A DNA stretch of 64,000 nt from an uncultured Acidobacteriaceae bacterium (GTDB taxonomy: Bacteria > Acidobacteriota > Terriglobia > Terriglobales > Acidobacteriaceae): positions 601,975 through 665,974 of the forward strand of contig CAVSBF010000002.1 of NCBI GenBank assembly GCA_963726155.1. The letters run 5' to 3'. The position numbers and the translations under genes are program-made. This document shows positions 2,132 to 55,545 of the stretch, piece after piece. Each line of letters starts with the position of its first letter. Positions within the stretch are counted from its first letter, which is position 1. A model generated the notes under the pieces. The model saw only the letters and a list, made by a program, of their open reading frames with translations. It was not told where the DNA came from and did no database searches.

Positions 2132-3196
2132 ATGCATAGGTCACTTGCGACCAGCACTATTCTGGAGCATGAACTTTCAGAGTTTCGGCTGCTGGTCGAG
2201 CGCCAAACCGGCTTGGTCCTCGATTGTCCCAACAGCGTATTGGCGGCGCGTCTGGCCGATTTCATCGAAACGCAGGAGTTAGACTCACCCGCCACGCTGT
2301 TAGAAAGGTTGCGATCTCCAGAGCAAGATCCAGCTACGCTGCCCTCATTGCTCGATGGGCTAGTTAGCGCGAATACCGGATTTTTTCGTCATCCCGGCGC
2401 GTTGAATGCCTTAACGCGGCAAGTATTGCCGCAACTGTGGGCGCGCAAGTCAGTGGACAGCCCTGGACCGATACGCATTTGGAGTGCCGGCTGCGCGACG
2501 GGAGAAGAGACCTATTCGATCGCAATGGCGGTATGTGACGCGGTGAATCCCGCGAACGTAAGCGTGCCGAGTAATGGCCCCGCATCAGTGAACGCGACCG
2601 GCAAAGGTGCAAAGAACGGAGGCATCGCCGAAAATAATCCAGCCGGACAACCTCCCCCCAGGCTCGGTTCGGGCTGCTCAATCCACATCGTAGGCAGCGA
2701 CCTGCTGCCGCGAAACATCGAAGCGGCCGACCGCGGCGTATACCGGCAGTCGGCGTTGGAGGGTCTGCCGCCGGCCACGATTCGCAATTATTTTTCGAAA
2801 ATTGGTACACCGAGCGCCGCAGCTGCAGCAAACCTTGAGCCTGACTTGGATGGCGATGCTCCCAATGCAGCGCCGCCGCCCGCAGTCACCCCGCACCTCT
2901 TGGTGAAGCCACGTCTGCGCAGCCTGGTCACTTTCAACTGCATGAACCTAGCCCGCCCCGGCTATATCGGTCGATTCGATTGCATCTTTTGTATGGACGT
3001 GCTGCCCCACTTCTCGCGCGTGCAGCGGCTGGCTGTGCTGGAACGACTGCATCTTTACCTCGAACCCGGCGGATATCTCTTCCTGAGCCAAACGGAAAAA
3101 CTCTCAGCATCAAGTCTGAATTTTCGCTCGGAAAACTTCGACGGATATACGTTTCACCGGAAGCCGTTGGCGGCAAGCGCGGCTTACGGAAGATAA
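2132..3196 (+). CDS. CheR-type SAM-dependent protein-glutamate O-methyltransferase with low-complexity insertions
   Basis: Motifs FFRHPGALNAL and IRIWSAGCATGEETYSIAMAV (CheR SAM motif I), then IHIVGSDLLPRNIEAADRGVYR. The ATG at 2132 with upstream GGGAAAGG is preferred over the GTG at 2099. Confidence 0.8.
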   Translation: MHRSLATSTILEHELSEFRLLVERQTGLVLDCPNSVLAARLADFIETQELDSPATLLERLRSPEQDPATLPSLLDGLVSANTGFFRHPGALNALTRQVLPQLWARKSVDSPGPIRIWSAGCATGEETYSIAMAVCDAVNPANVSVPSNGPASVNATGKGAKNGGIAENNPAGQPPPRLGSGCSIHIVGSDLLPRNIEAADRGVYRQSALEGLPPATIRNYFSKIGTPSAAAAANLEPDLDGDAPNAAPPPAVTPHLLVKPRLRSLVTFNCMNLARPGYIGRFDCIFCMDVLPHFSRVQRLAVLERLHLYLEPGGYLFLSQTEKLSASSLNFRSENFDGYTFHRKPLAASAAYGR

Positions 3197-3231
3197 TTGA
3201 TCGAATTGTCTACTTTGTCTATAATGGACAA

Positions 3232-3477
3232 ATGAAGACGGTCTCCGCTACTGACGCCAAACAGCGCCTCGCAGCCCTTCTCGACGCCGCCCAACGAGAG
3301 CCGGTTCTTATCCGCCGCCAGAATCGCGACGTCGCGGTGATCATGTCTGCACAAGAATATGAGCGCATTCGCAGAATTAATATCATCGAGCTGAAGCGCA
3401 CCATGGATCGCATCGGCGCCCAAGCCGAGGCGCGAGGAATGACGAAAGAGATTCTGGCTGACATCGTGAAAGACTGA
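3232..3477 (+). CDS. type II antitoxin, Phd/YefM family
   Basis: 81 aa. MKTVSATDAKQRLAALLDAAQREPVLIRRQNRDVAVIMSAQEYERI is a typical Phd/YefM N-terminus. Its stop overlaps the PIN gene start by 1 nt. Confidence 0.8.
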   Translation: MKTVSATDAKQRLAALLDAAQREPVLIRRQNRDVAVIMSAQEYERIRRINIIELKRTMDRIGAQAEARGMTKEILADIVKD

Positions 3478-3911
3478 TGCGTGGCCTGCGCGGCAGAGAC
3501 CTCGATCGCATCGTCGTCGACACCAACGTATTCGTCAGCGCCATCGCATTGTCCCGCTCGGTTCCTCGTCAAGCCGTTAACAGAATGTTAGACAGCGGTG
3601 TCTTGCTGTTCTCCGAAGCGACGATGACTGAGCTGGTGGAAGTCCTTCGCCGTCCAAAGTTTGATCGGTATGTCAGCGCGGAAGACCGCGCAATTTTCCT
3701 CGGTCAGCTCCGTACTGTTGCTGAATTCGTGCCCATCATCCAAGTCGTCCGCGAGTGCCGCGATTCGAAGGATGACAAGTTTCTGGAAGTCGCGCTGAAC
3801 GGGAGGGCGGATGTGATTATTACGGGCGATGCGGATTTGTTGGGGATGCATCCCTGGCGGGAGGTCGCGGTTTTATCGCCCGTTCACTTCTTAGGGAATG
3901 TTAAATCGTAG
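3477..3911 (+). CDS. PIN-domain toxin (TIGR00305-like putative TA toxin)
   Basis: IVVDTNVFVSAIA near the N-terminus, RDSKDDKFLEVAL and ADVIITGDADLL near the C-terminus give the PIN acidic residues. Translationally coupled to the upstream antitoxin. Confidence 0.8.
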   Translation: MRGLRGRDLDRIVVDTNVFVSAIALSRSVPRQAVNRMLDSGVLLFSEATMTELVEVLRRPKFDRYVSAEDRAIFLGQLRTVAEFVPIIQVVRECRDSKDDKFLEVALNGRADVIITGDADLLGMHPWREVAVLSPVHFLGNVKS

Positions 3912-3981
3912 CGCTTCACGTCCATCGCGTTTAAAAGCTTAAGCAAAGCAGTTGCGAGCGTCAGTGACCGTTTGCCGTCTT

Positions 3982-4371
3982 CTACTTGAAAGTCGATCTT
4001 GCATAGTGGGCGATGTCGTTTCGCTTGTCGAAGAGCTGCTCTTGGAAGAGATCTTTAATCGAGGTGCAAGGGTTCCAACCAGTCAGCGCCGGGCCCAAGA
4101 GGCCAACTTTCAAATGTGCGAACTCGTCGAAAGGCTTACTGGTTAGGAGTCGAGACAGTTCGTCCAGTCGCTTACCAATTAACCGCATGTTCGCCCACTC
4201 GCCCTCCCACGCCTTCCTGTCTTCAGAAGTCTGGTCCGCGGGAACTTTCCCAGAATTAATCCCTTTCCACTTAGAAAACAAGTAGGCCATCTCTGCCTCA
4301 ACAGCCACAGCACTTAAAAGGGTGGAGATGGTAGCGTCGTTGTGTTGGAGTTCGTGCTTAGCGCGTGCCAT
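3982..4371 (-). CDS. HEPN-motif protein (Rx4H), putative RNase toxin
   Basis: The sequence looks helical by eye. The C-terminal FDKRNDIAHY matches the HEPN Rx4-6H signature with a polar residue after R. ATG at 4371 (the track ORF starts at TTG 4377). It may be the C-terminal part of one frameshifted gene, 3982-4522. Confidence 0.45.
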   Translation of the reverse strand: MARAKHELQHNDATISTLLSAVAVEAEMAYLFSKWKGINSGKVPADQTSEDRKAWEGEWANMRLIGKRLDELSRLLTSKPFDEFAHLKVGLLGPALTGWNPCTSIKDLFQEQLFDKRNDIAHYARSTFK

Positions 4372-4522
4372 GAGCAACGTCGTGACAAAGTTGCCCAGGG
4401 GGGATTAGGTAGGTCGTAGCGCAGCAATCGGGGCAGACCACATGATCAGGAAGCTCACTTCCAATAACCTCCAACGATATTTGTTTGCCACAAGCGCACG
4501 GAATTGTTAACGGTGATTTCAT
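4358..4522 (-). CDS. small zinc-ribbon-like protein (54 aa)
   Basis: Hand-translated as MKSPLTIPCACGKQISLEVIGSELPDHVVCPDCCATTYLIPPGQLCHDVAHGTR. It has a CxC ... CxxCC arrangement and overlaps the HEPN ORF by 14 nt. It is below the 60-aa cutoff of the ORF track. Confidence 0.4.
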   Translation of the reverse strand: MKSPLTIPCACGKQISLEVIGSELPDHVVCPDCCATTYLIPPGQLCHDVAHGTR

Positions 4523-4556
4523 CCAAGTCGATTAGGTGCAACAACCGGCGCTTTCG

Positions 4557-6548
4557 CTACGCGAACAAAAATTCTTTCGTCCGCAGTTCTTTTATAGTGT
4601 CTCTTAGCGTTGCAGCCTTTTCGAATTCGAAGCGTTTGGCGGCTTCGCGCATATCGCTTTCGAGTTTGACGATGTAGCTATCCAACTCTTCCTGTGATTT
4701 AAATTCGGGCATGCCTTCAGCTCCGCTTCCAGTCAGGTCCGTATAATCGGCGGCAACAATTCCGGCGAGTGTCATGTCCAGCGGCCGCACGATGGATTCC
4801 GGCGTAATTCCATTCTCCAAGTTGTACGCGGTCTGGATCTCGCGACGGCGCAGGGTTTCGTCGATGGCGCGCTTCATGGAATCGGTCATGCGATCGGCAT
4901 AAAGAATGGCGCGGCCGCGCAGATGCCGCGCGCAGCGGCCTATGGTTTGAATTAACGATCCCCAGGAACGCAGGAAGCCTTCTTTATCCGCGTCGAGAAT
5001 TGCTACCAGCGAAACTTCGGGAAGATCGAGACCTTCGCGTAGAAGATTGATGCCGATCAATACGTCGAACTCGCCTTTCCGCAGATCACGGAGAATCTTT
5101 ACTCGCTCGAGTGTTTCGATTTCGGAATGCATGTAGCGGCACTTCACGCCCACTTCGGCGTAATACTCCGCCAGGTCTTCGGCCATGCGTTTCGTCAGTG
5201 TGGTGACCAGCACGCGCTCACCGCGCTCCACGCGCGCGCGAATCTCATGGAGCAAGTCGTCGATCTGGCCCTTGACCGGACGGACTTCGACCTCGGGATC
5301 GATCAATCCTGTAGGCCGGATGATCTGCTCTACCACCACACCCGCCGATTTCGTTAATTCATAGGGGCCCGGCGTCGCCGAGACATAAACCAGTTGGTTG
5401 GTGCGATGCTCAAATTCTTCGAATGTAAGCGGACGGTTATCCAGGGCCGAGGGGAGACGGAATCCGTACTCCACCAGTGTTTCCTTGCGGGAGCGGTCCC
5501 CGGCATACATGCCGCGCAATTGCGGAATCGTCTGGTGCGATTCGTCGACGAACATTAAATAATCCCGCGGGAAATAATCCAGCAACGTTGGAGGCGGCTC
5601 GCCCGGCATGCGTCCGGTGAAGTGCCGGGAATAATTTTCTATGCCATGGCAGTAACCCATGACTTTGATCATTTCCAGATCGAACTTCACTCGCTGGTGA
5701 ATGCGCTGCGCTTCGACTACGCGTCCTTGTTTCTCGAGTTCTACTTCCCACCATGCCAGTTCTTTCTTGATCGACTCCACAGCCGAAGCGCGGGTTTCAT
5801 CTTTCATCACGTAATGCGTTTTGGGATAAATCGGCAGCCGCATGTACTTTTGCTTGACTGTGCCGAACAGGGGATCGATCTGTGCCAGCGATTCGACCTG
5901 ATCTCCCCATAGCTCGATGCGGTAGGCCATGTCATCGTAGGTAGGGAAGACTTCGATCACGTCGCCACGCACGCGAAATGTTCCGCGGCGGAATTCGCCG
6001 TTGGTGCGCTCGTAGAGGATGTCGACCAGTTTGCGCGTGATGTCTTCGCGCGCAATCTTCTGGCCCTTTTCCAGAAACAACATCATGCCGTAATAAGCTT
6101 CAGGCGAGCCGAGGCCGTAAATGCAGCTCACCGAAGCAACAATCAGTGCGTCCCGGCGTTCAAACAAAGATCGAGTCGCCGACAGTCGAAGTTTATCGAG
6201 TTCATCGTTGATGGTCGCTTCTTTTTCGATAAACAAATCGGCAGCGGGAACGTAAGCCTCAGGCTGGTAATAGTCGTAATACGAAACAAAATATTCCACC
6301 GCGTTGTGGGGAAAGAAATTTTTGAACTCGTGATAAAGCTGCGCCGCCAAAGTTTTGTTATGAGCCATTACCAGCGCGGGACGATTCACCGCCTCAATGA
6401 CCTTGGCCATGGTGTAGGTCTTGCCCGAGCCGGTGACTCCGAGCAGAACCTGATGCTGCTCGCGGTCGTACACACCTCGCAACAACGAATCGATGGCGCG
6501 GCCCTGATCGCCCTGCGGTTTGTAATCGGAAACTAGTTTAAAGTCCAT
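4557..6548 (-). CDS. uvrB: excinuclease ABC subunit B
   Basis: 663 aa with Walker A GVTGSGKT, helicase motifs, and the C-terminal UVR domain ([21 protein letters not shown]). Confidence 0.97.
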
Positions 6549-6588
6549 GGGAGAAGCTCTTAGCAGTTAGCCTTTAGCCACTGTCCTA

Positions 6589-6634
6589 TGTGGGGACGGC
6601 TGCCATCGGCTGTCCATGCCGAGCAAAGCTCGGC
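6589..6634. repeat. REP-like double-hairpin element, copy A
   Basis: TGTGGGGACGGCTGCCATCGGCTGTCC followed by the hairpin GCCGAGC-AAA-GCTCGGC. An inverted copy lies at 26679-26721, with 24/27 identity over the first 27 nt. Confidence 0.6.
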
Positions 6635-6712
6635 TAGGTTTCCTTGCCAATTTAGCTACTGCTGTCACAGCAGACAATTTCGCCGAGTGCGAATCCGTCT
6701 ATTATAACGTGG

Positions 6713-6732
6713 CAAAACGCGACCGGGTCGCG
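6713..6732 (-). terminator. putative intrinsic terminator of the cNMP/FAD oxidoreductase gene
   Basis: On the minus strand, CGCGAC-CCG-GTCGCG (6-bp stem) is followed by TTTTG, directly after the stop at 6734. Confidence 0.5.
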
Positions 6733-6733
6733 G

Positions 6734-8404
6734 TCACAACTCCGCTAGCGCCCGGTGCACCAGATAGATGGAGATCGATCCTTCACCCACAGCGGCGGCC
6801 ACGCGCTTTACATTCCCGGCTCGGACATCGCCGACGGCAAATACTCCCGGCAGGCTGGTTTCCAGCATTTGCGGAGCGCGCGGCAGCGGCCATTTGAAGC
6901 TCTGCGAGAAGGGGTCTAAATCCCGCCCAGTCAGAATGAAGCCTTTGCTATCCAGCAGCACGCATCCTTTCAGCCACTCGGTGCGCGGAGAAGCCCCCGC
7001 CATGATGAACACGTGGCGAATGTTGTGGATCGACTTCTCGCCGGTGTTCCTGTCTTGCCAGGTCACGCTTTCCAGTTGAGCATCGCCGTCCAGGCCAACA
7101 ATCTGCGTGCTGTAATGTATTTCGATCGCGGGATTTTCTTCAATGCGCTGGATCAGGTAGCGCGACATCGTGTCCGACAATCGACTCGACCGCACCAACA
7201 TATGGACTTTGCCGGCCGTCTGCGAGAGATAAACCGCTGCCTGCCCGGCTGAGTTGCCGCCGCCTACGACAATTGCATCGTCCGTTCCGCAGAGTTGCGC
7301 CTCGATATAGGTGGCGCCGTAGTAGACACCCTGGCCTTCAAACTTTTTCAGGTTGTCGATGTTCGGTTTGTTGTACTGCGCGCCAGTGGCGATCACCACC
7401 GTACGTGCACGAATCGTCTGGCCGCAATCCACGGTCAATTCGTAGGGGCGCTGCTCGCAATTCAATTTTGTCACGTTGTTGGCGATCAGTACTTTGGCGC
7501 CAAATTTTTGCGCTTGGGCGGCGGCCCGGCCGGCAAGTTCGTTCCCCGAAATTCCCATGGGAAATCCGAGATAGTTTTCGATCTTCGAACTGGATCCCGC
7601 CTGCCCACCGGGAGAGTCCGCCTCGATCACCAGAACATCCAAGCCCTCCGATGCGGCGTAAACCGCCGCTGCCAAGCCGGATGGTCCCGCGCCAACGATC
7701 ACTACATCGCGCAACTCCGACGGTGTGATGTGGGCGTTGAGCCCCAGGCATCTCGCCAATTCCTGAATCGAAGGACTACGCAGCACTGTGCGGTTGTTGC
7801 AGATGACGACAGGAATCTCTTTCATCGTGACGTGAAAACGATCGAGCAGTTCCTGAGCGCTGGTATCGGTATCGAGATCAACGTAGGTGTGCGGATGCCC
7901 GTTGCGGGTGAGAAACTCGCGCAGACGCAAGGTTTGAGCGGAGTGGCGGGAGCCCATCAGAATAACGTTTCCCCGACCCTGGTTGATTAGAGCAACCCGC
8001 CGCAGGATGAAGGCACGCATGAAAATTTCGCTGAGCTCCGCGTCTCGGGCGACGAGAGTCCGCAAATCATCGCTGCTCATTTCCAGAAATTCGCCGGCGT
8101 CCTTCACTCGACCCCGCACCAGGCTGCTGCGACCCGAGATCATCGTGATTTCCCCGGTGAATTCCCCCGGCTCATGCTTAACGATTAACTGCTCGCCATT
8201 CAGACTCGGCTGAACGATTTCCAGGCTTCCAGAGAGCAGCACGAAAAACGGGATGTCGCTGTCGCCCGGCTCAAACAGGATGTCGCCCACTTCCACCTTC
8301 CGAACTTTGCTGGAGGGACGAATACGGTTGATCTGGTCAGCGGTGAGCACGGGGAAAGCCTCACCACGAAGGTCAGCAGAGAAAGGTGTTAATTGCGTAG
8401 ACAT
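6734..8404 (-). CDS. cyclic-nucleotide-binding domain fused to a thioredoxin-reductase-like FAD/NAD(P) oxidoreductase
   Basis: The N-terminus is a cNMP-binding fold (FEPGDSDIPFFVLLSGSLEIV ... GEFTGEITMISGR). The C-terminus has GxGxxG motifs (VVIVGAGPSGLAAAVYA, VVGGGNSAGQAAVYL) and GDVRAGNVKRVAAAVGEGS. The ATG at 8404 is chosen because the longer ORF overlaps the upstream gene. Confidence 0.8.
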   Translation of the reverse strand: MSTQLTPFSADLRGEAFPVLTADQINRIRPSSKVRKVEVGDILFEPGDSDIPFFVLLSGSLEIVQPSLNGEQLIVKHEPGEFTGEITMISGRSSLVRGRVKDAGEFLEMSSDDLRTLVARDAELSEIFMRAFILRRVALINQGRGNVILMGSRHSAQTLRLREFLTRNGHPHTYVDLDTDTSAQELLDRFHVTMKEIPVVICNNRTVLRSPSIQELARCLGLNAHITPSELRDVVIVGAGPSGLAAAVYAASEGLDVLVIEADSPGGQAGSSSKIENYLGFPMGISGNELAGRAAAQAQKFGAKVLIANNVTKLNCEQRPYELTVDCGQTIRARTVVIATGAQYNKPNIDNLKKFEGQGVYYGATYIEAQLCGTDDAIVVGGGNSAGQAAVYLSQTAGKVHMLVRSSRLSDTMSRYLIQRIEENPAIEIHYSTQIVGLDGDAQLESVTWQDRNTGEKSIHNIRHVFIMAGASPRTEWLKGCVLLDSKGFILTGRDLDPFSQSFKWPLPRAPQMLETSLPGVFAVGDVRAGNVKRVAAAVGEGSISIYLVHRALAEL

Positions 8405-22792: not shown

Positions 22793-23116
22793 TTACCGTG
22801 CGCCAAGTGTATCCAGTCGCGTGATCGTATCCGGATATTTGCGAACCAGAAGGACGAGCGCGGCGGCCTGAGGGTTAGGTCTTGCACGCCCTTGCTCCCA
22901 TTTTTCGAGGGTTCTTTCGTTGATCCGCAGTTTACGGGCGAATACGGCTCGCGAGCAGCGCAGCTTTTTTCTCGTATCTCGAAGCATCTTCGAATCCACT
23001 TTGGGTAGAGGCATTACATCGATCTTGCAGCTGCGCAGGGTAAGCTTGCCTTCCCGGTGGTTCTTCATCGCCGCGACACCATCCATGAGTTCGCCGAAAA
23101 TATTTCTCTTCGCCAT
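22793..23116 (-). CDS. HTH (XRE-type) antitoxin, HigA/NadS-like
   Basis: LRCSRAVFARKLRINERTLEKWEQGRARPNPQAAALVLLV is a typical HTH_3-type antitoxin. It is encoded downstream of the toxin with a 1-nt overlap (TAATG). Confidence 0.7.
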   Translation of the reverse strand: MAKRNIFGELMDGVAAMKNHREGKLTLRSCKIDVMPLPKVDSKMLRDTRKKLRCSRAVFARKLRINERTLEKWEQGRARPNPQAAALVLLVRKYPDTITRLDTLGAR

Positions 23117-23505
23117 TATCGTAGCCTTTCCCGTATTCTAGCGTTGGCGTTCCGACGGACCGCGCGAGCCCCCAACTCATTCTCAATCGCGGCCATAAGC
23201 GCCTTCTTTTGCTTGCCAGTCAGGTCCGAAGCTTCGTCTTTATCGTAGAGCGTCATCAACCATATTTGACTATCGGAACTGAAATGGTAATAAATAACGC
23301 GGAGCCCACCTCTACGCCCCTTACCGCGCCGCGCATCCGGCCAGCGCAGTTTGCGAAAACCGCCCGTGCCGGGCATCAAATCCCCAAGTTCAGGTTTTGC
23401 TCCCAGCTTGGTCTGGAGTTCCTTGTAACCGTCGTCATTCAGATAGCTAGCCAGATAACGTGTGAATGTCGGCGCCTCAATAAACTCCATGTCAAAGTAC
23501 TCCAT
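23116..23505 (-). CDS. RelE/HigB-superfamily toxin
   Basis: GGFRKLRWPDARRGKGRRGGLRVIYYHFSSDSQIWLMTLYDKDEASDL is a recognisable HigB-2/RelE-like core. The ATG at 23505 follows GGAAGG. The longer ORF would start at 23550. Confidence 0.65.
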   Translation of the reverse strand: MEYFDMEFIEAPTFTRYLASYLNDDGYKELQTKLGAKPELGDLMPGTGGFRKLRWPDARRGKGRRGGLRVIYYHFSSDSQIWLMTLYDKDEASDLTGKQKKALMAAIENELGARAVRRNANARIRERLR

Positions 23506-23558
23506 TGGAGTACCTTCCAAGATCATACGCCGATAGCGTATAGCAGTCAAAGCGAAAT

Positions 23559-24572
23559 CTAAGGCCGGAGCAGCCGTTTCGCGATAGTGCAGTACAAATC
23601 GATCGCTTCCGCGAGTTGCTGCTTATCGATGAACTCGCCATCAGTATGCGCAACGTGAATCGATCCCGGACCGATCAGCAGGGGTTGGCCCCAATTCGTT
23701 AGTGCAGGAATATCTGTGGTGAATGCGGCAATCATCGTTGGCAGATTGTCGACGGTCCGCAAGCGCAGGAAAGGGATTTCGAGGGGAAAGTCAACTTTCA
23801 CCTGATCGCCGGCAGTCGCGAGAATTTGGCGCCGCAACTCCTGCGAGGGGCCGATGAGACGATAAAGCAAATCGGCATGCGCGTGATCTGGAATCACGTT
23901 GGGCGCGCGTCCGCCGTCGATCAATCCGATGTTTAGCGTACAAGGGCCGACCTGCGCGTCGGTCGGCAGCGGCATGGCCTGCAAGCGCGTCAGAGCTGCA
24001 ATCAGCTTGTCGATCGCGGATTCGCCAAGTTCGGGATAAGCGGAATGAGCCATGCGTCCGGAAGCCGTGACCTCCGCGCGCAGCGTTCCTTTCGAAGCCA
24101 GTGCGATGCGATTCTCGGTGGGCTCACCGTTGATCAGATACTTGCAGGCGTGCTCTGGCTGGCTTGCTGCATAGGCATTGGCGACCTTCGCTCCCAGGCT
24201 GTCTCGCTCTTCGCCTACCAGGAACAACAGGCCGACGTTAATTCCTTCTCTTCTTAAGCGCTCTGAAGCGGCGATCTGCGTCGCGATGATGCCTTTCGCA
24301 TCACACGAACCCCGGCCATAAATTCGGGCCGCATCTTCCGAAGACGGTATGAAGGGAGGAACCGTATCCATGTGCGTGGAGAAAACGATCTCGGGATTCG
24401 GCTGCTCCGGCGACGTGGCGTAGACATCAAAGCGGTCGCCTTCCACCGGAATTTTTCGTGTCTGGTAACCGATGCGGCAAAGTTCTCCGTAAAGATAATT
24501 TCCGACCGCGGCTTCATTGCCGGAGATGGATTCGATGTCGACGAGTTGGCGCGTGAGAGTGATTGCGTCCAT
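23559..24572 (-). CDS. M20-family metallopeptidase (ArgE/DapE-like deacylase)
   Basis: FSTHMDTVPP ... GRGSCDAKG ... LFLVGEE are the M20 metal-binding motifs. Confidence 0.8.
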   Translation of the reverse strand: MDAITLTRQLVDIESISGNEAAVGNYLYGELCRIGYQTRKIPVEGDRFDVYATSPEQPNPEIVFSTHMDTVPPFIPSSEDAARIYGRGSCDAKGIIATQIAASERLRREGINVGLLFLVGEERDSLGAKVANAYAASQPEHACKYLINGEPTENRIALASKGTLRAEVTASGRMAHSAYPELGESAIDKLIAALTRLQAMPLPTDAQVGPCTLNIGLIDGGRAPNVIPDHAHADLLYRLIGPSQELRRQILATAGDQVKVDFPLEIPFLRLRTVDNLPTMIAAFTTDIPALTNWGQPLLIGPGSIHVAHTDGEFIDKQQLAEAIDLYCTIAKRLLRP

Positions 24573-24639
24573 GCAAGAAAGAATAAACTAAGGGCCTCGC
24601 AGCGGCGGCTAGAAGCACGAATCATGTAATCTGAACTTT

Positions 24640-51480: not shown

Positions 51481-51864
51481 TTCCGCCGCCCCGAACCATA
51501 ATCGCCCCCAATCGCGTTCTCAATCGATAACGGAACCACAGGTTTGTTTACCTGTAAGTTAACGGAACAGAATTTTCTTTTACAGATTGAATATACGGTT
51601 TTTAGGATTTTCTGCAGTTGCAATGGCGCGACGTGTCCCCCCCCTTAGAGAACAAGTGGCCGTAACCAATTGAAAAATAAGGATTATCTGTTGAATACAC
51701 AAAGTACAGTAAGCTGGCGGGAAAATTGCTTTAGACCAACAAGACATCGTAGTAAACCCATTTTGTAGCAGTGTTTTTGTTGGCATTTTGGTCTGTGGTG
51801 AATTGAGAAAGACGTCCCGCAGAGAAGAATTCTGAAGAGAACGACCCCAAAAGGAAGGTTTAAT

Positions 51865-54800
51865 ATGTTGAAGCTCAACTCCTCCCGCCTCAATCTCGTG
51901 CTGGTTCTGGTGGCCCTGTTTGCCCTGTGTTGCTCGTCTTTGATGTTTGCGCAGACGTCGATTGCGACCGGAAGTATTCAGGGCAACGTGACGGATGCCA
52001 CTGGCGCGGTCTTGCCTAACGCTAAGGTTACCGCCACGGGTCCTACCGGGCAGACTCTTCACGCCACCAGCAATTCGGCAGGGGAATACACTTTCGGTGC
52101 ATTGAACCCTGGTATTTATCAAGTGCGGGTCGAGGCAAAGGGCTTCAAGACATCGCAGCTGACCTTGAATGTCAAAGTGGATAACGCCGCCAACGGCAGC
52201 ATCAAGCTCGAGATCGGCCAGGAAAGCACAGTGGTTGAAGTGCAGGCCAGCGAAGTGCAGGTCAACACCGAACAGGCAACGGTGCAGGGTGTTTTGACCG
52301 CCAGCCAGATCGAAAACTTGCCGGTGAATGGTCGCAACTTCCTTGACCTCGCGCAACTCGAACCCGGCGTACAAATTCAGGATGGCCAGAACTTCGATCC
52401 CACCAAGGCAGGTTACTCCTCCATCTCGTTCGGCGGCCGTTACGGCCGCACGGCACGTATCGAAGTAGATGGTGTTGACGTCTCGGACGAAACCGTCGGC
52501 ACCACTACCACCGACATTCCCGCCAGCGCTATCCAGGAATTTCAGATCGGACAGGCGAGCTTGGATATGTCGACCGAACTTACCTCTTCGGGTTCGGTCA
52601 ACGTGACCACGAAATCCGGAACGAACGGAATTCACGGCGAAGCGTTCGGCCAATTCCGCGATTATCGTGCTGGTTGGGCAGCACTACCGGGAGGAGCGAA
52701 TCCTTACTCTCAGCGGAGCCAGTACGGTGCCGATTTAGGTGGACCGATCATCAAGAACAAGCTGTTTTTCTTCGGGGATGGCGAGCGGACGGTTCAGAAT
52801 ACGCAAACCCCGGTCCCTATCTCCGCTCCGTTCCAAGCCTACACGGGGAATTTCAGCGATCCCTTCCGCGAGGATAATCTTCTCGGCCGGTTGGACTACC
52901 AACTTACGAAGAGCGCACGTCTCTTTGCCCGCTACTCTTATTTCAAGAACTTGCTGGGTGCAACTTTCGGATTCGGCTATTCGCTATACGACAACAAAAA
53001 CATCACTCGCAACGAAGTGGTGGGGGTAGATTTCAATACCGGCCCGTTCACCCACTCCATTCGTTTCTCCTATTTGAAGTTCCAGAATCAGATCGTGGAT
53101 GCAACTACAGGGAATGCTTCTTTGCCCTTCGACGATCTGGGCGCGGAAATCTTCATGGGTGCCACCGGCTTGGTGGCCGGTCCAAATCTACTGGCCCCGC
53201 AGAGCACTCCGCAAAGCGATCACGAGTTCAAGTATGACGGCAGCCGGATTTTGGGTTCGCACATCATTCGCTACGGAGCGACGTTTAATCATCTTCAGGG
53301 CGGCGGCTTCGCCTCATTTTTCAGAAATGGACCACAGGTTATCTCTCAGGTCACCACCGCTGAGTCGATGCCAGGAGGCACGGCAGACAATTCTTGGCTT
53401 CCAATCGGACCTACGAACCTGACCGGATGTCCTTTGCCGGGGCCAACGGGCCCCTGTTTCCCCGGCGGCGCTGCGAATCCGCTGAATTATCCGGCGGATG
53501 GCGGCTATACCCTCGGCAATGGCTTGGGCTACTCGACCTCCAAGGCGGCACTCGGGTTCCCTGCTGGCGGATTGGGGCCTGACAACCGTGTGCTCTTGTA
53601 CCTCGGCGATTCCTGGAAGATCAAATCGAACTTCACGCTGACTTACGGATTGCGTTACGAGCGCGATACAGGCCGTACGGACAGCCAATACGCTGCGATT
53701 CCTCAGCTAAGTGCTCTCCTTCCTGGGCTCGGAAACGCAGTGAACCAGCCCAACAAGAACTTTGGCCCAGACTTAGGTTTTGCGTGGGATCCGGCGAAAA
53801 ACGGTAAGACTGCCATCCGAGGCGGAATCGGCTTGTTCTGGGAAAATGCCATCTGGAACAACGTACTATTTGACGGCCCGTACCGGGAGCCTACGGGTGC
53901 CTTCGCGCAGTTCCCCGGACCCTGTGCCGCTGCAGGACAACCGTCTCCTTTGCAAACTCCGACCGGTGCCATCAACCCGAGCGAGGCCGTTTGCGGTACT
54001 GCGTCAGGAGGATTCCCATTAATTGGGAACGCCGTGCCGGCGGTCATCGCTCTTTCAAAGGCATATCAGGCAGCTTCACCCCTGAACGTGCAGGAGCCGA
54101 ATCCAGGATATGCCGGACAGTACCTCACAGGCTGCTCGGACGGCTCAAACTGTTTCTTCCAGTCCGGCACCAACCTGTTCAATCCTAACTACAAATCACC
54201 GCGCTCGGTGGTCATGAATCTCGGCATCCAACGCGAGCTTCACCCCGGCATGGTCTTGAGCGTTGACTTCATTCGCAACGTCCAAACCCACTTCCTGCTG
54301 GGAGTGGACGAGAATCACACAGGCGACATCCGGTACTTCAACGCCGGCGGCGCTAACGCTGCTGTTGCCACCACGATTGCGAATTGCTTAGGCGCACCGG
54401 GCACGGTCGCACAAACGTACTCAGGTAATTGTCCAGATGATCCCGCGACCGGAACCACGGATAGCGGAAATTGGACACCGCGCCCTGCCACGATTGCGGA
54501 CTACGCAGGGAACGGCTTAGGCTCAACCGCCGACTTCGGCGGTACCAGTTGTCTCGCGGCCGTGGGTCACCCCTGCGCATTCGGCGGTATCAACCCGATT
54601 GCACCACCCCTGAATTTCCTCTCTCCGGTTGGTCGTTCGGTCTACAACGGCTTGCAGATGAAGTGGATTGACAACGTGAAGGCTCCCTTCCGGGGCTCCA
54701 AGGATATGAATTTCCAAGTCTCATATGCCTTGTCGCGTTTCGATAACTCCGGCGGCGGCGTCGGGCCAGGGTCAACAGTGACGGCTGCGGCGGCGGATCA

Positions 54801-55545
54801 GGACTTCATCGTCCCAGCTCTGGACAACCAGAATGTGAATCGTTATTTTGGACCTTCCACCCTGGATCGCACCCACCAGTTATCCTTTGGTGGTTTCGTT
54901 GACTTGCGATACGGTTTGCAACTTGGGGTGATGTCCCACTTCTACAGTCCCCTTGCAATCACTCCTACAGTTCCGAACACGGGCCTTGGCGCCGGAGAGA
55001 TCTTCCGCACCGACTTCACTGGCAGCGGCGTGACCCAGGATCCGCTTCCGGGAACCAAGGTCGGCAGCTTTGACCGCGGCGTCAACGCCAAGACCCTGAA
55101 TGGAGCTATTTCTAACTACAACTCCCTCGTCTCCGCAGGTACGCTAACGCCTGCGGGCAACGTGCTCGTTCAGCGGGGCGTGATGACGCAGGCGGATCTG
55201 ATCGCACTGGGTGGCATCTACAACGGTGGGTCGCCACTCCCGTTGGCACCTTCCGACCAAGTCAACTACCCATGGCTGAAGACCTTTGACGCCACCATCG
55301 GCTGGACCTATACGTTCAAAGAGCGATTCACGATTAAACCTGGCGTGGGCTTCTTCAATCTGTTTAACTTCGCCAATTTCGATCTTCCGACGAGCATGAT
55401 GTCAGGGCTGCTGACCGGTTCCACCGGTAGCATCAACGGCACCAACTACGCCGGGCAGCTCGTGAACCGGGTCGGCGTCGGGACCGGCGTATACACGCTG
55501 GGCTCGCCGCGTGAAACTGAGTTCAGCTTGAAGGTAGTGTTCTAG
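51865..55545 (+). CDS. TonB-dependent receptor with N-terminal carboxypeptidase-regulatory-like domain
   Basis: 1226 aa. Signal peptide, CarboxypepD_reg (GSIQGNVTDATGAVLPNAKVT ... GEYTFGALNPGIYQVRVEAKGF), plug motifs and a C-terminal aromatic residue (VVF). Confidence 0.9.
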   Translation: MLKLNSSRLNLVLVLVALFALCCSSLMFAQTSIATGSIQGNVTDATGAVLPNAKVTATGPTGQTLHATSNSAGEYTFGALNPGIYQVRVEAKGFKTSQLTLNVKVDNAANGSIKLEIGQESTVVEVQASEVQVNTEQATVQGVLTASQIENLPVNGRNFLDLAQLEPGVQIQDGQNFDPTKAGYSSISFGGRYGRTARIEVDGVDVSDETVGTTTTDIPASAIQEFQIGQASLDMSTELTSSGSVNVTTKSGTNGIHGEAFGQFRDYRAGWAALPGGANPYSQRSQYGADLGGPIIKNKLFFFGDGERTVQNTQTPVPISAPFQAYTGNFSDPFREDNLLGRLDYQLTKSARLFARYSYFKNLLGATFGFGYSLYDNKNITRNEVVGVDFNTGPFTHSIRFSYLKFQNQIVDATTGNASLPFDDLGAEIFMGATGLVAGPNLLAPQSTPQSDHEFKYDGSRILGSHIIRYGATFNHLQGGGFASFFRNGPQVISQVTTAESMPGGTADNSWLPIGPTNLTGCPLPGPTGPCFPGGAANPLNYPADGGYTLGNGLGYSTSKAALGFPAGGLGPDNRVLLYLGDSWKIKSNFTLTYGLRYERDTGRTDSQYAAIPQLSALLPGLGNAVNQPNKNFGPDLGFAWDPAKNGKTAIRGGIGLFWENAIWNNVLFDGPYREPTGAFAQFPGPCAAAGQPSPLQTPTGAINPSEAVCGTASGGFPLIGNAVPAVIALSKAYQAASPLNVQEPNPGYAGQYLTGCSDGSNCFFQSGTNLFNPNYKSPRSVVMNLGIQRELHPGMVLSVDFIRNVQTHFLLGVDENHTGDIRYFNAGGANAAVATTIANCLGAPGTVAQTYSGNCPDDPATGTTDSGNWTPRPATIADYAGNGLGSTADFGGTSCLAAVGHPCAFGGINPIAPPLNFLSPVGRSVYNGLQMKWIDNVKAPFRGSKDMNFQVSYALSRFDNSGGGVGPGSTVTAAAADQDFIVPALDNQNVNRYFGPSTLDRTHQLSFGGFVDLRYGLQLGVMSHFYSPLAITPTVPNTGLGAGEIFRTDFTGSGVTQDPLPGTKVGSFDRGVNAKTLNGAISNYNSLVSAGTLTPAGNVLVQRGVMTQADLIALGGIYNGGSPLPLAPSDQVNYPWLKTFDATIGWTYTFKERFTIKPGVGFFNLFNFANFDLPTSMMSGLLTGSTGSINGTNYAGQLVNRVGVGTGVYTLGSPRETEFSLKVVF

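Follow-up and report, generated by a model that had tools for sequence, protein, structure and literature searches.

The window examined here is a 64,000-nt stretch of the genome of an uncultured Acidobacteriaceae bacterium (contig CAVSBF010000002.1, positions 601,975 to 665,974), and our subject is a pair of small overlapping open reading frames (ORFs) on its minus strand, directly downstream of uvrB. Comparison with related sequences identifies the two ORFs as pieces of one conserved 213-residue gene without prior characterization, in which a zinc ribbon is joined to a probable HEPN RNase domain. What the window holds is thus one copy, disrupted or mis-assembled, of a gene that is widespread but unannotated, rather than a new two-gene module, and nothing about it is categorically new. 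Taken as a whole, the explanation that we favor, with good but not full confidence, is a single broken gene—a recent null allele—that when intact would encode a zinc-ribbon/HEPN-type RNase.

One gene across two overlapping reading frames

An earlier note on this DNA, made from the letters alone, had described either two overlapping ORFs or one frameshifted fusion, and each of the elements that it listed is present. An ORF of 54 amino acids (aa) carrying PCACG...CPDCC lies at 4358..4522 on the minus strand, overlapping a second at 3982..4377 on the same strand (131 aa from a TTG, 129 aa from the ATG at 4371), which reads KRNDIAHYARSTFK at its C-terminus and there contains RNDIAH (4006..4023, minus strand) within KRNDIAHY. 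The pair spans 541 nt (3n+1), and removal of one G from the run of six at 4398-4403 of the plus strand—the only G6 of the 64-kb window—gives a 179-aa fusion. A homology search with this fused sequence returned 72 proteins (E 1e-18 to 1e-89), the majority of which cover 100% of the query as one ORF; the arrangement of the ORFs therefore exceeds chance, and the second of the two options in the note, a frameshifted fusion, is the one borne out.

Homologues are also longer than the fusion. About 60 relatives are single ORFs of ~213 aa that run from the equivalent of 4522 down to 3884 on the minus strand, extending ~38 residues past the stop in the window: where they read ...AHYGKIDFQEEDG.RSLSLATALLKLLHAMD..RYDLTFPKK, the aligned window reads AHYARSTFK and ends. 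Six-frame translation placed the lost tail, KIDFQVEDGKRSLTLATALLKLLNAMDVKRYDLTFPKK followed by a TGA stop at 3884..3886, in the frame of the first ORF. There is thus a second frameshift, one G missing at TAT-GGC-AAG, through which the gene runs on in the first-ORF frame to that TGA. The note was right to see a single fused chain, but its 179-aa product is still truncated, the second frameshift dropping the last helix, and the intact allele differs from the window by two additional C in the linker tract (C8) rather than by one base fewer. The parts of the gene, all on the minus strand, are as follows.

3884..4522, minus strand: remnant of the whole gene; 639 nt here and 642 nt when intact (213 codons plus stop); tblastn of the homologue P0002 covers residues 1-213 in three frame-shifted pieces
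4400..4522, minus strand: Cys4 zinc-ribbon domain (MKSPLTIPCACGK...VCPDCCATTYLIP), the homologous portion of the 54-aa ORF at 4358..4522, with Cys9/11/30/33
4398..4403, minus strand: frameshift site 1, the linker homopolymer; C6 on the coding strand, C8 when intact (ATC CCC CCC CTG, I-P-P-L)
3982..4371, minus strand: second ORF, 129 aa from ATG; predicted helices 1-3 and the inter-helix insert, then six out-of-frame codons (ARSTFK) and a stop
4006..4023, minus strand: RNDIAH, the Rx4H motif; corresponds to R168-H173 of the modeled intact homologue, where predicted helix 3 ends
4001..4003, minus strand: frameshift site 2; TAT-GGC-AAG minus one G gives TAT-GC-AAG, from alignments with the close relative L001 and 8-9 intact homologues
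3884..4000, minus strand: stranded C-terminal segment (KIDFQVEDGKRSLTLATALLKLLNAMDVKRYDLTFPKK and stop), coding for predicted helix 4; in frame with the first ORF, out of frame with the second, and fitting the homologue consensus

In a DNA alignment with eight intact homologues, the linker lesion is a 2-nt shortfall (ATC-CCCCC-TGG in the window vs. ATC-GCC-CCC-TTG in relatives), and the second lesion is a 1-nt loss in TAT-GGC-AAG beside window position 4002, directly after RNDIAHY. Adding CC at the tract and G at the second site converts the window sequence into a 642-nt ORF that is 100% identical in its product to an intact public protein, P0251. Outside the lineage of the window, the gene is unbroken in 24 of 25 related loci, the exception (L003) being a locus whose uvrB is also fragmented. 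As written, the window codes only for a 54-aa zinc-ribbon fragment and a 129-aa helical fragment without the last helix; loss of the G strips helix 4, so the 129-aa fragment cannot complete the helical bundle, and the copy as written is non-functional. For annotation, this means that the two ORFs are to be merged and flagged as one disrupted gene, or that the assembly is to be corrected.

Two readings would leave the sequence as it stands. Under one, the ORFs are separate functional genes: the first would yield a zinc-ribbon protein of 54 aa and the second, read from its internal ATG at 4371, a stand-alone helical toxin of 129 aa. Both ORFs are indeed open, public annotation calls the 129-aa product as a gene, and many homologues are annotated from the equivalent internal Met; however, these short annotations are gene-caller choices, as illustrated by locus L002, where the full-length ORF is intact yet called at 165 aa. 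Because the 129-aa product is also without the last core helix of the bundle, the final 13 residues of the 54-aa ORF are out-of-frame sequence, and at least 75 diverse members conserve both domains and the linker together in a single chain, we regard two genes as very improbable. Programmed ribosomal frameshifting, in which a +1 shift at AUC-CCC-CCU would join the ORFs, deserves next to no weight. CCC-C contexts can support +1 slippage of tRNA-Pro, and site 1 does need a +1 shift, but homologues are in frame and share no conserved recoding site, the same sequence is also known as an intact allele, the site is followed by neither a stimulatory stop nor a rare codon, and the second, non-slippery frameshift downstream would still truncate the product.

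The protein family and its helical domain

The single gene belongs to a sizeable family that has so far gone without an entry in Pfam, NCBIfam, or PADLOC. A profile search recovered at least 321 cluster representatives at 50% identity (223 of them at E<=1e-10), mostly 205-230 aa long and with the same two-part layout. In a diverse alignment of 75 members (22-62% identity), the near-invariant positions are C9, C11, C30, C33, E58, D63, A72, K85, F165, R168, N169, H173, and G175. The ratio of nonsynonymous to synonymous substitution rates (dN/dS) among intact homologues is 0.16 overall (0.19 in the zinc ribbon and 0.15 in the helical domain), and relatives therefore retain a functional protein. 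The fused protein of the window itself matches no Pfam, NCBIfam, or PADLOC family at E<=1, a PHROGs scan of the 75 members gave nothing consistent, and no relatives were found in viral contigs (profile scan) or in phage genomes and plasmids (tblastn).

Two further observations concern how the family appears in existing resources. Public gene calls (P0043-P0058) often begin at an internal Met and yield 162-174 aa even where a 213-aa ORF is open, for example at 3857-4498 of L002, and the zinc ribbon is consequently missing from protein databases in a systematic way. Separately, three of the 75 members weakly match DzbB of the Dazbog defense system in PADLOC (best E 4.3e-6).

The N-terminal Cys4 zinc ribbon that the note had proposed held up: Cys9, Cys11, Cys30, and Cys33 are each present in 71-74 of the 75 members, the corresponding region is modeled as beta strands, and 23 members give weak matches to Zn_ribbon_8, with RPB9 and eS27 also matched weakly. 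An AlphaFold2 model built on the homologue alignment (predicted local distance difference test score, pLDDT, 88; predicted template modeling score, pTM, 0.82) comprises a four-stranded N-terminal ribbon at residues 2-38 and helices at 46-60, 64-90, 100-138 (three short, inserted helices), 156-174, and 181-209. A second model, of the helical domain only, reached a pLDDT of 94.8.

We consider it probable that the helical domain belongs to the HEPN superfamily. R168, N169, and H173 each occur in 74 of 75 members, forming an Rx4-6H motif with a polar residue directly after R, so that the R and H singled out in the note are conserved and the lack of conservation that it named as a refutation did not arise; in the model, R168-H173 occupies the end of helix 156-174, ahead of the loop that leads to the last helix. 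The second helix has an acidic residue at position 76 in every one of the 75 members (E in 62, D in 13), with the exact Ex3[KR] spacing absent, and K85 is conserved in 71. The HEPN domain has been described as a four-helix up-down bundle whose motif lies where helix 3 ends and the loop to helix 4 starts, with a polar residue next to R; helix 2 contributes an acidic residue, and an insertion separates it from helix 3 (PMC3710099). As modeled, the position of the motif, the acidic residue, and the helix 2-3 insert match that arrangement. Profile matches point the same way at low scores: 15 of the 75 members match PF18735 (RiboL-PSP-HEPN; best E 1.5e-4) over the motif and last helix, at profile positions ~143-186 of 191, scoring 12-14 bits in examples against a curated cut-off of 28.4, and three weakly match PF05168 (best E 4.2e-4) over the same elements. 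Single weak matches to Csx1, Cas13, and CARF-HEPN were found in PADLOC among the 75. Among the full-domain Foldseek hits of the full-length model, HEPN structures rank first (2q00, 2hsb, 1ufb, 5fsh, 4nqf, 1o3u, and 3o10), at E 0.37-2.4 and TM scores of 0.53-0.58 normalized to the target.

Several results weigh against this assignment. No HEPN match reaches its curated threshold, membership of any specific HEPN Pfam family failing at that point, and the window sequence has none at E<=1; the Foldseek top 50 for the higher-confidence, domain-only model contain no HEPN structure; profile searches of PDB sequences gave weak zinc-ribbon matches and no HEPN; and no bridging protein annotated with an HEPN Pfam family came up when the 75-sequence profile was used for a further homology search. 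What stands of the HEPN claim in the note is the conserved motif; the fold finds no support at significance, the Pfam matches being sub-threshold, the Foldseek E values 0.37 or higher, and the HEPN hits absent with the second model.

The domain might accordingly be some other four-helix bundle, with R, N, and H serving in ligand or nucleic-acid binding linked to nucleotide-excision repair. Such a reading draws on the sub-threshold rank of every HEPN match, on the domain-only model, which finds generic helical bundles only, and on the tight synteny with uvrB in one lineage. It seems to us unlikely, if still worth keeping in view: four features agree with how HEPN is defined (the R-polar-x3-H type of motif, its place where helix 3 ends, the acidic residue of helix 2, and the insert between that helix and the next), the weak matches recur to HEPN families specifically, and the more distant members of the family are not linked to uvrB. 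On the HEPN reading, which we prefer, the intact protein would probably act as a stand-alone, metal-independent HEPN-type endoribonuclease.

Alleles at the two frameshift sites and their origin

The exact 129-aa product of the window is present in public data as P0246, on a contig of 2,324,511 nt, and we compared alleles within the 90%-identity cluster of 12 near-identical proteins around it. This cluster holds C8+GG, C8+G, C7+G, C6+GG, and C6+G alleles, the C7 and C8 tracts being deduced from the proteins P0252 and P0250/P0251/P0255. The state of the linker tract, the state of the second site, and the product are given for each below.

P0251: linker C8 (YLIPPLGN = ATC CCC CCC CTG); GG; intact, 213 aa
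P0250, P0255: linker C8; G lost; product ends after RNDIAHY
P0252: linker C7; G lost; N-terminus in the third frame
P0008 (= L001): linker C6, read from DNA; GG; 162 aa from M51
P0247, P0249: linker not C8, judged from the M51 start; GG; 162 aa from M51
Window (P0246): linker C6; G lost; 54 aa + 129 aa

L001, a 926-nt contig from another run, SRR28023470, is 99.7% identical to the window, with three differences in the gene and eight more in the adjacent PIN gene; it has the C6 tract of the window but an intact GG. Loss of the G occurs on both variants of a single-nucleotide polymorphism (SNP), L/F, 45 nt away (P0246 vs. P0254), and the same single-G loss after RNDIAHY recurs in L034 (run SRR30413551, about 575-585), whose lineage is only 82% identical in DNA. 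This sharing between the window and L034 may reflect a hotspot, a systematic sequencing error, or coincidence. L034 also has a CG-dinucleotide insertion further 3'. The C8 tract is confined to the lineage of the window, other lineages having C3-C5 with interrupting bases in the DNA alignment, and 7 of 72 cluster representatives have frameshift-like ends. Another lineage has a frameshift allele that reads LSLATACLICYAQWTRSATI and stops, represented by P0029 (20 member sequences, 6 contigs) and P0061 (14 contigs), with the Joint Genome Institute (JGI) among the sources; the P0029/P0061 alleles coexist with intact alleles in the JGI contigs L039 and L041.

Because the restored sequence is identical to P0251, the window copy is either a recent null allele or an assembly artefact, and an old, decaying pseudogene is ruled out on the same ground. 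The lesions, in other words, are recent null alleles at hypermutable sites or long-read consensus errors; in the former case, the null allele of the window would be very recent. A real poly-C change is probable, as the independent short contig L001 has it too, and we lean toward that view with some assurance; about the loss of G at the second site we are more doubtful, and incline a little against its being real. Two proteins from NCBI metagenome-assembled genomes (MAGs), on contigs of 10.7 and 52 kb, begin at M51 as a split frame predicts, and the JGI-sourced frameshift alleles of the other lineage occur beside intact ones; both favor real mutation. If instead both frameshifts were long-read consensus errors, the organism would have the intact 213-aa gene (= P0251) and nothing would be biologically broken, a possibility that we rate as substantial, though the lesser one. 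Length errors in homopolymers are the classic error of long reads, site 1 is such a run, and near-identical sequences show C6, C7, and C8 alike. The contig of 2.3 Mb that carries the exact product of the second ORF makes a long-read assembly likely, and sister assemblies of the same source type are error-rich, with uvrB in 2-5 pieces in L003, L005, L006, and L020. Loss of the G on two SNP backgrounds and in L034 is odd for independent real mutations and is what a context-specific systematic error would give; none of 7 JGI contigs shows it, nor do three NCBI MAG proteins from contigs of 5.8-52 kb. Nor has the window gene accumulated any other decay, three restored nucleotides being enough for 100% identity to the intact allele. 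All of this weighs against a broken gene in the organism itself. On the other side, L001, a short contig of a different run, has C6; both errors would have fallen in one 640-nt gene, with no further split gene detected among the ~20 other genes of the window that were checked; other homopolymers of up to 7-8 nt stay in frame (twelve within intact long ORFs, namely five G/C runs of 6-7 nt and seven A/T runs of 7-8 nt); and the GG is intact in other long-read-type loci that share the GGCAAGATC context.

The broken gene could also be a gene switched off. The C8 tract of the linker would then be hypermutable and act as a phase-variation-like ON/OFF switch, with the window in the OFF state, and it is in keeping with this that C6, C7, and C8 alleles occur among ~98-100% identical sequences of different samples, that the C8 tract evolved in this lineage only, and that frameshifted alleles are common in the family (the 7 of 72 representatives mentioned above). 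We nevertheless think a switch unlikely. The calls of tract length are confounded by sequencing technology, several being possibly or likely long-read; eight bases are at the low end for contingency loci; and the second lesion lies outside any repeat, so that slippage alone could not revert the window copy. A recent null allele of a single gene remains our preferred reading.

Three observations from elsewhere in the window may be recorded here. Ten same-strand overlapping ORF pairs were considered as further split genes and proved to be separate, complete genes. A Peptidase_M20 ORF at 23559-24587 (within 23116-24587, minus strand) matches profile positions 2-143 of 206 only, together with the dimerization domain, and is overlapped and followed by a 168-aa ORF without a family match; the two may represent another frame break or a separate small gene. 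Finally, the sole C8 run of the window, at 51637-51644, is intergenic, ~160 nt upstream of a 1248-codon ORF (51802-55545), and could be a length-variable tract in a promoter or leader.

Genomic neighborhood and comparison with known systems

The following genes flank the broken gene.

4557..6548, minus strand: uvrB, 663 aa; 34 nt upstream of the gene
3232..3911, plus strand: Phd/YefM antitoxin (3232..3477) and PIN_3 toxin (3477..3911), Pfam E 1.1e-15 and 9.8e-19; neighbors outside the gene

The proximity to uvrB noticed in the note is real and is kept in close relatives: of 18 species-representative MAG loci, 16 have uvrB (88-98% identical) as the next gene upstream in the same orientation, as do the other close loci, and the spacer, 34 nt in the window, measures 3-52 nt in close relatives (Candidatus Sulfotelmatobacter-like Terriglobia). 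Exceptions are L006 and L007, where a ParE/antitoxin pair is inserted, and L023, which has a gap of 830 nt. A promoter and terminator scan found no promoter-like or terminator-like site in the uvrB-gene spacer of the window. Co-transcription with uvrB is plausible, and in the mechanism that we propose the gene is probably co-transcribed. Distant members of the family are not so placed, however: no uvrB lies nearby in the two most distant genome loci (41-43% identity) or in four still more distant members, no neighbor is common to them, and such distant loci lie in some cases among toxin-antitoxin genes and in others among housekeeping genes. The link to uvrB looks like lineage-specific synteny. 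A LexA-box pattern, GTTCN7GTTC, had no match upstream of uvrB (6549-6733), with window-wide counts at chance; Rfam gave nothing in 3000-7000, and there are no meaningful repeats around the gene.

On the downstream side, the neighborhood is variable and rich in toxin-antitoxin genes, with the convergent PIN/Phd pair, another PIN pair, a TIR-like gene, a cytochrome, PilZ, and others found at this position. In the window, Phd/YefM and PIN_3 (3232-3911, plus strand) are joined by an ATGA stop/start overlap, and the 3' end of the PIN gene convergently overlaps the restored gene by 28 nt (3884..3911), an overlap that is kept in L002, L003, and L009-L016. The PIN toxin pointed out in the note does adjoin the gene, but it belongs to its own Phd/PIN pair. 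More generally, the site behind uvrB in relatives is a hot spot for small toxin-antitoxin and defense-type genes: in L006 and L007, beyond the ParE/antitoxin pair between uvrB and the gene, TIR-like and PDDEXK_5 genes follow downstream (L006 4361-4906, 5770-7790), and L004 and L005 (5889-6522) have a different PIN pair.

The note had also cast the gene as a candidate toxin or defense effector, a role that the comparisons do not support. No partner gene is conserved among the loci examined, nor is an adjacent antitoxin, which counts against the function that we propose as well; with neighbors variable and no phage or plasmid copies found, the hallmarks of a type II toxin are absent. No defense partner is conserved, and no PADLOC family is matched.

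How, then, does the family compare with HEPN proteins already described? PF18735 is the HEPN type listed for PD-T4-2, PD-T4-5, PD-T7-3, and ApeA (PMC10952713; PMC3710099), and RiboL-PSP-HEPN is the best recurring profile match of the present family, whose gene is nevertheless without an L-PSP fusion and without a ParB operon. Canonical HEPN proteins (PF05168; 2q00, 2hsb, 1ufb, 1o3u, and 4nqf) give the top full-domain Foldseek hits of the first model, but no minimal nucleotidyltransferase (MNT) gene is adjacent in the loci examined.

The closest described system in overall plan is RAZR (PD-T7-4; ring-activated zinc-finger RNase; Nature 2026, PMC13017515), a recently characterized single-gene defense RNase that was found in E. 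coli by functional selection. Its N-terminal Cys4 zinc ribbon is connected through a conserved linker to a divergent HEPN domain at the C-terminus, in which R and H are essential (PMC13017515). This C-terminal domain is DUF4145, with R146 and H154 separated by seven residues; the protein works without an antitoxin and does no harm until portal or Erf-like rings of a phage assemble it into the active RNase, and the zinc ribbon sets its specificity (PMC13017515). The present family follows the same plan, its Cys4 zinc ribbon, linker, and HEPN-type domain being joined in that order in a single polypeptide, and in both families the zinc ribbon varies somewhat more than the C-terminal domain (dN here 0.196 vs. 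0.142). Several features nonetheless set the two apart: the spacing is Rx4H here vs. R146/H154 in RAZR; neither the window protein nor any of the 75 members matches the PD-T7-4 models of PADLOC at E<=1; DUF4145 is not among the Pfam families matched by at least three of the 75; no PDB sequence or Foldseek match to RAZR was listed; and the present family is chromosomal in Acidobacteriota, without phage or plasmid copies found. Homology to RAZR was thus not detected and the family is not a member of the RAZR family, but by analogy it may work like RAZR, and the zinc ribbon would then be a sensing or regulatory module.

One can extend the analogy further, to a slippage-prone C8 switch that would control a stand-alone, RAZR-like zinc-ribbon/HEPN RNase of an undescribed HEPN family, directly behind uvrB in a Sulfotelmatobacter-like lineage, with the zinc ribbon sensing a trigger and gating the RNase. 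We consider this combination improbable; if true, what the window shows would be a phase-variable effector of immunity or stress, in its OFF allele, in a soil acidobacterium. If the protein is an RNase gated by its zinc ribbon, the design principle of RAZR would extend to Acidobacteriota, with a different HEPN-like domain, and both the fixed site behind uvrB in one lineage and the high frequency of frameshift alleles would then call for an explanation.

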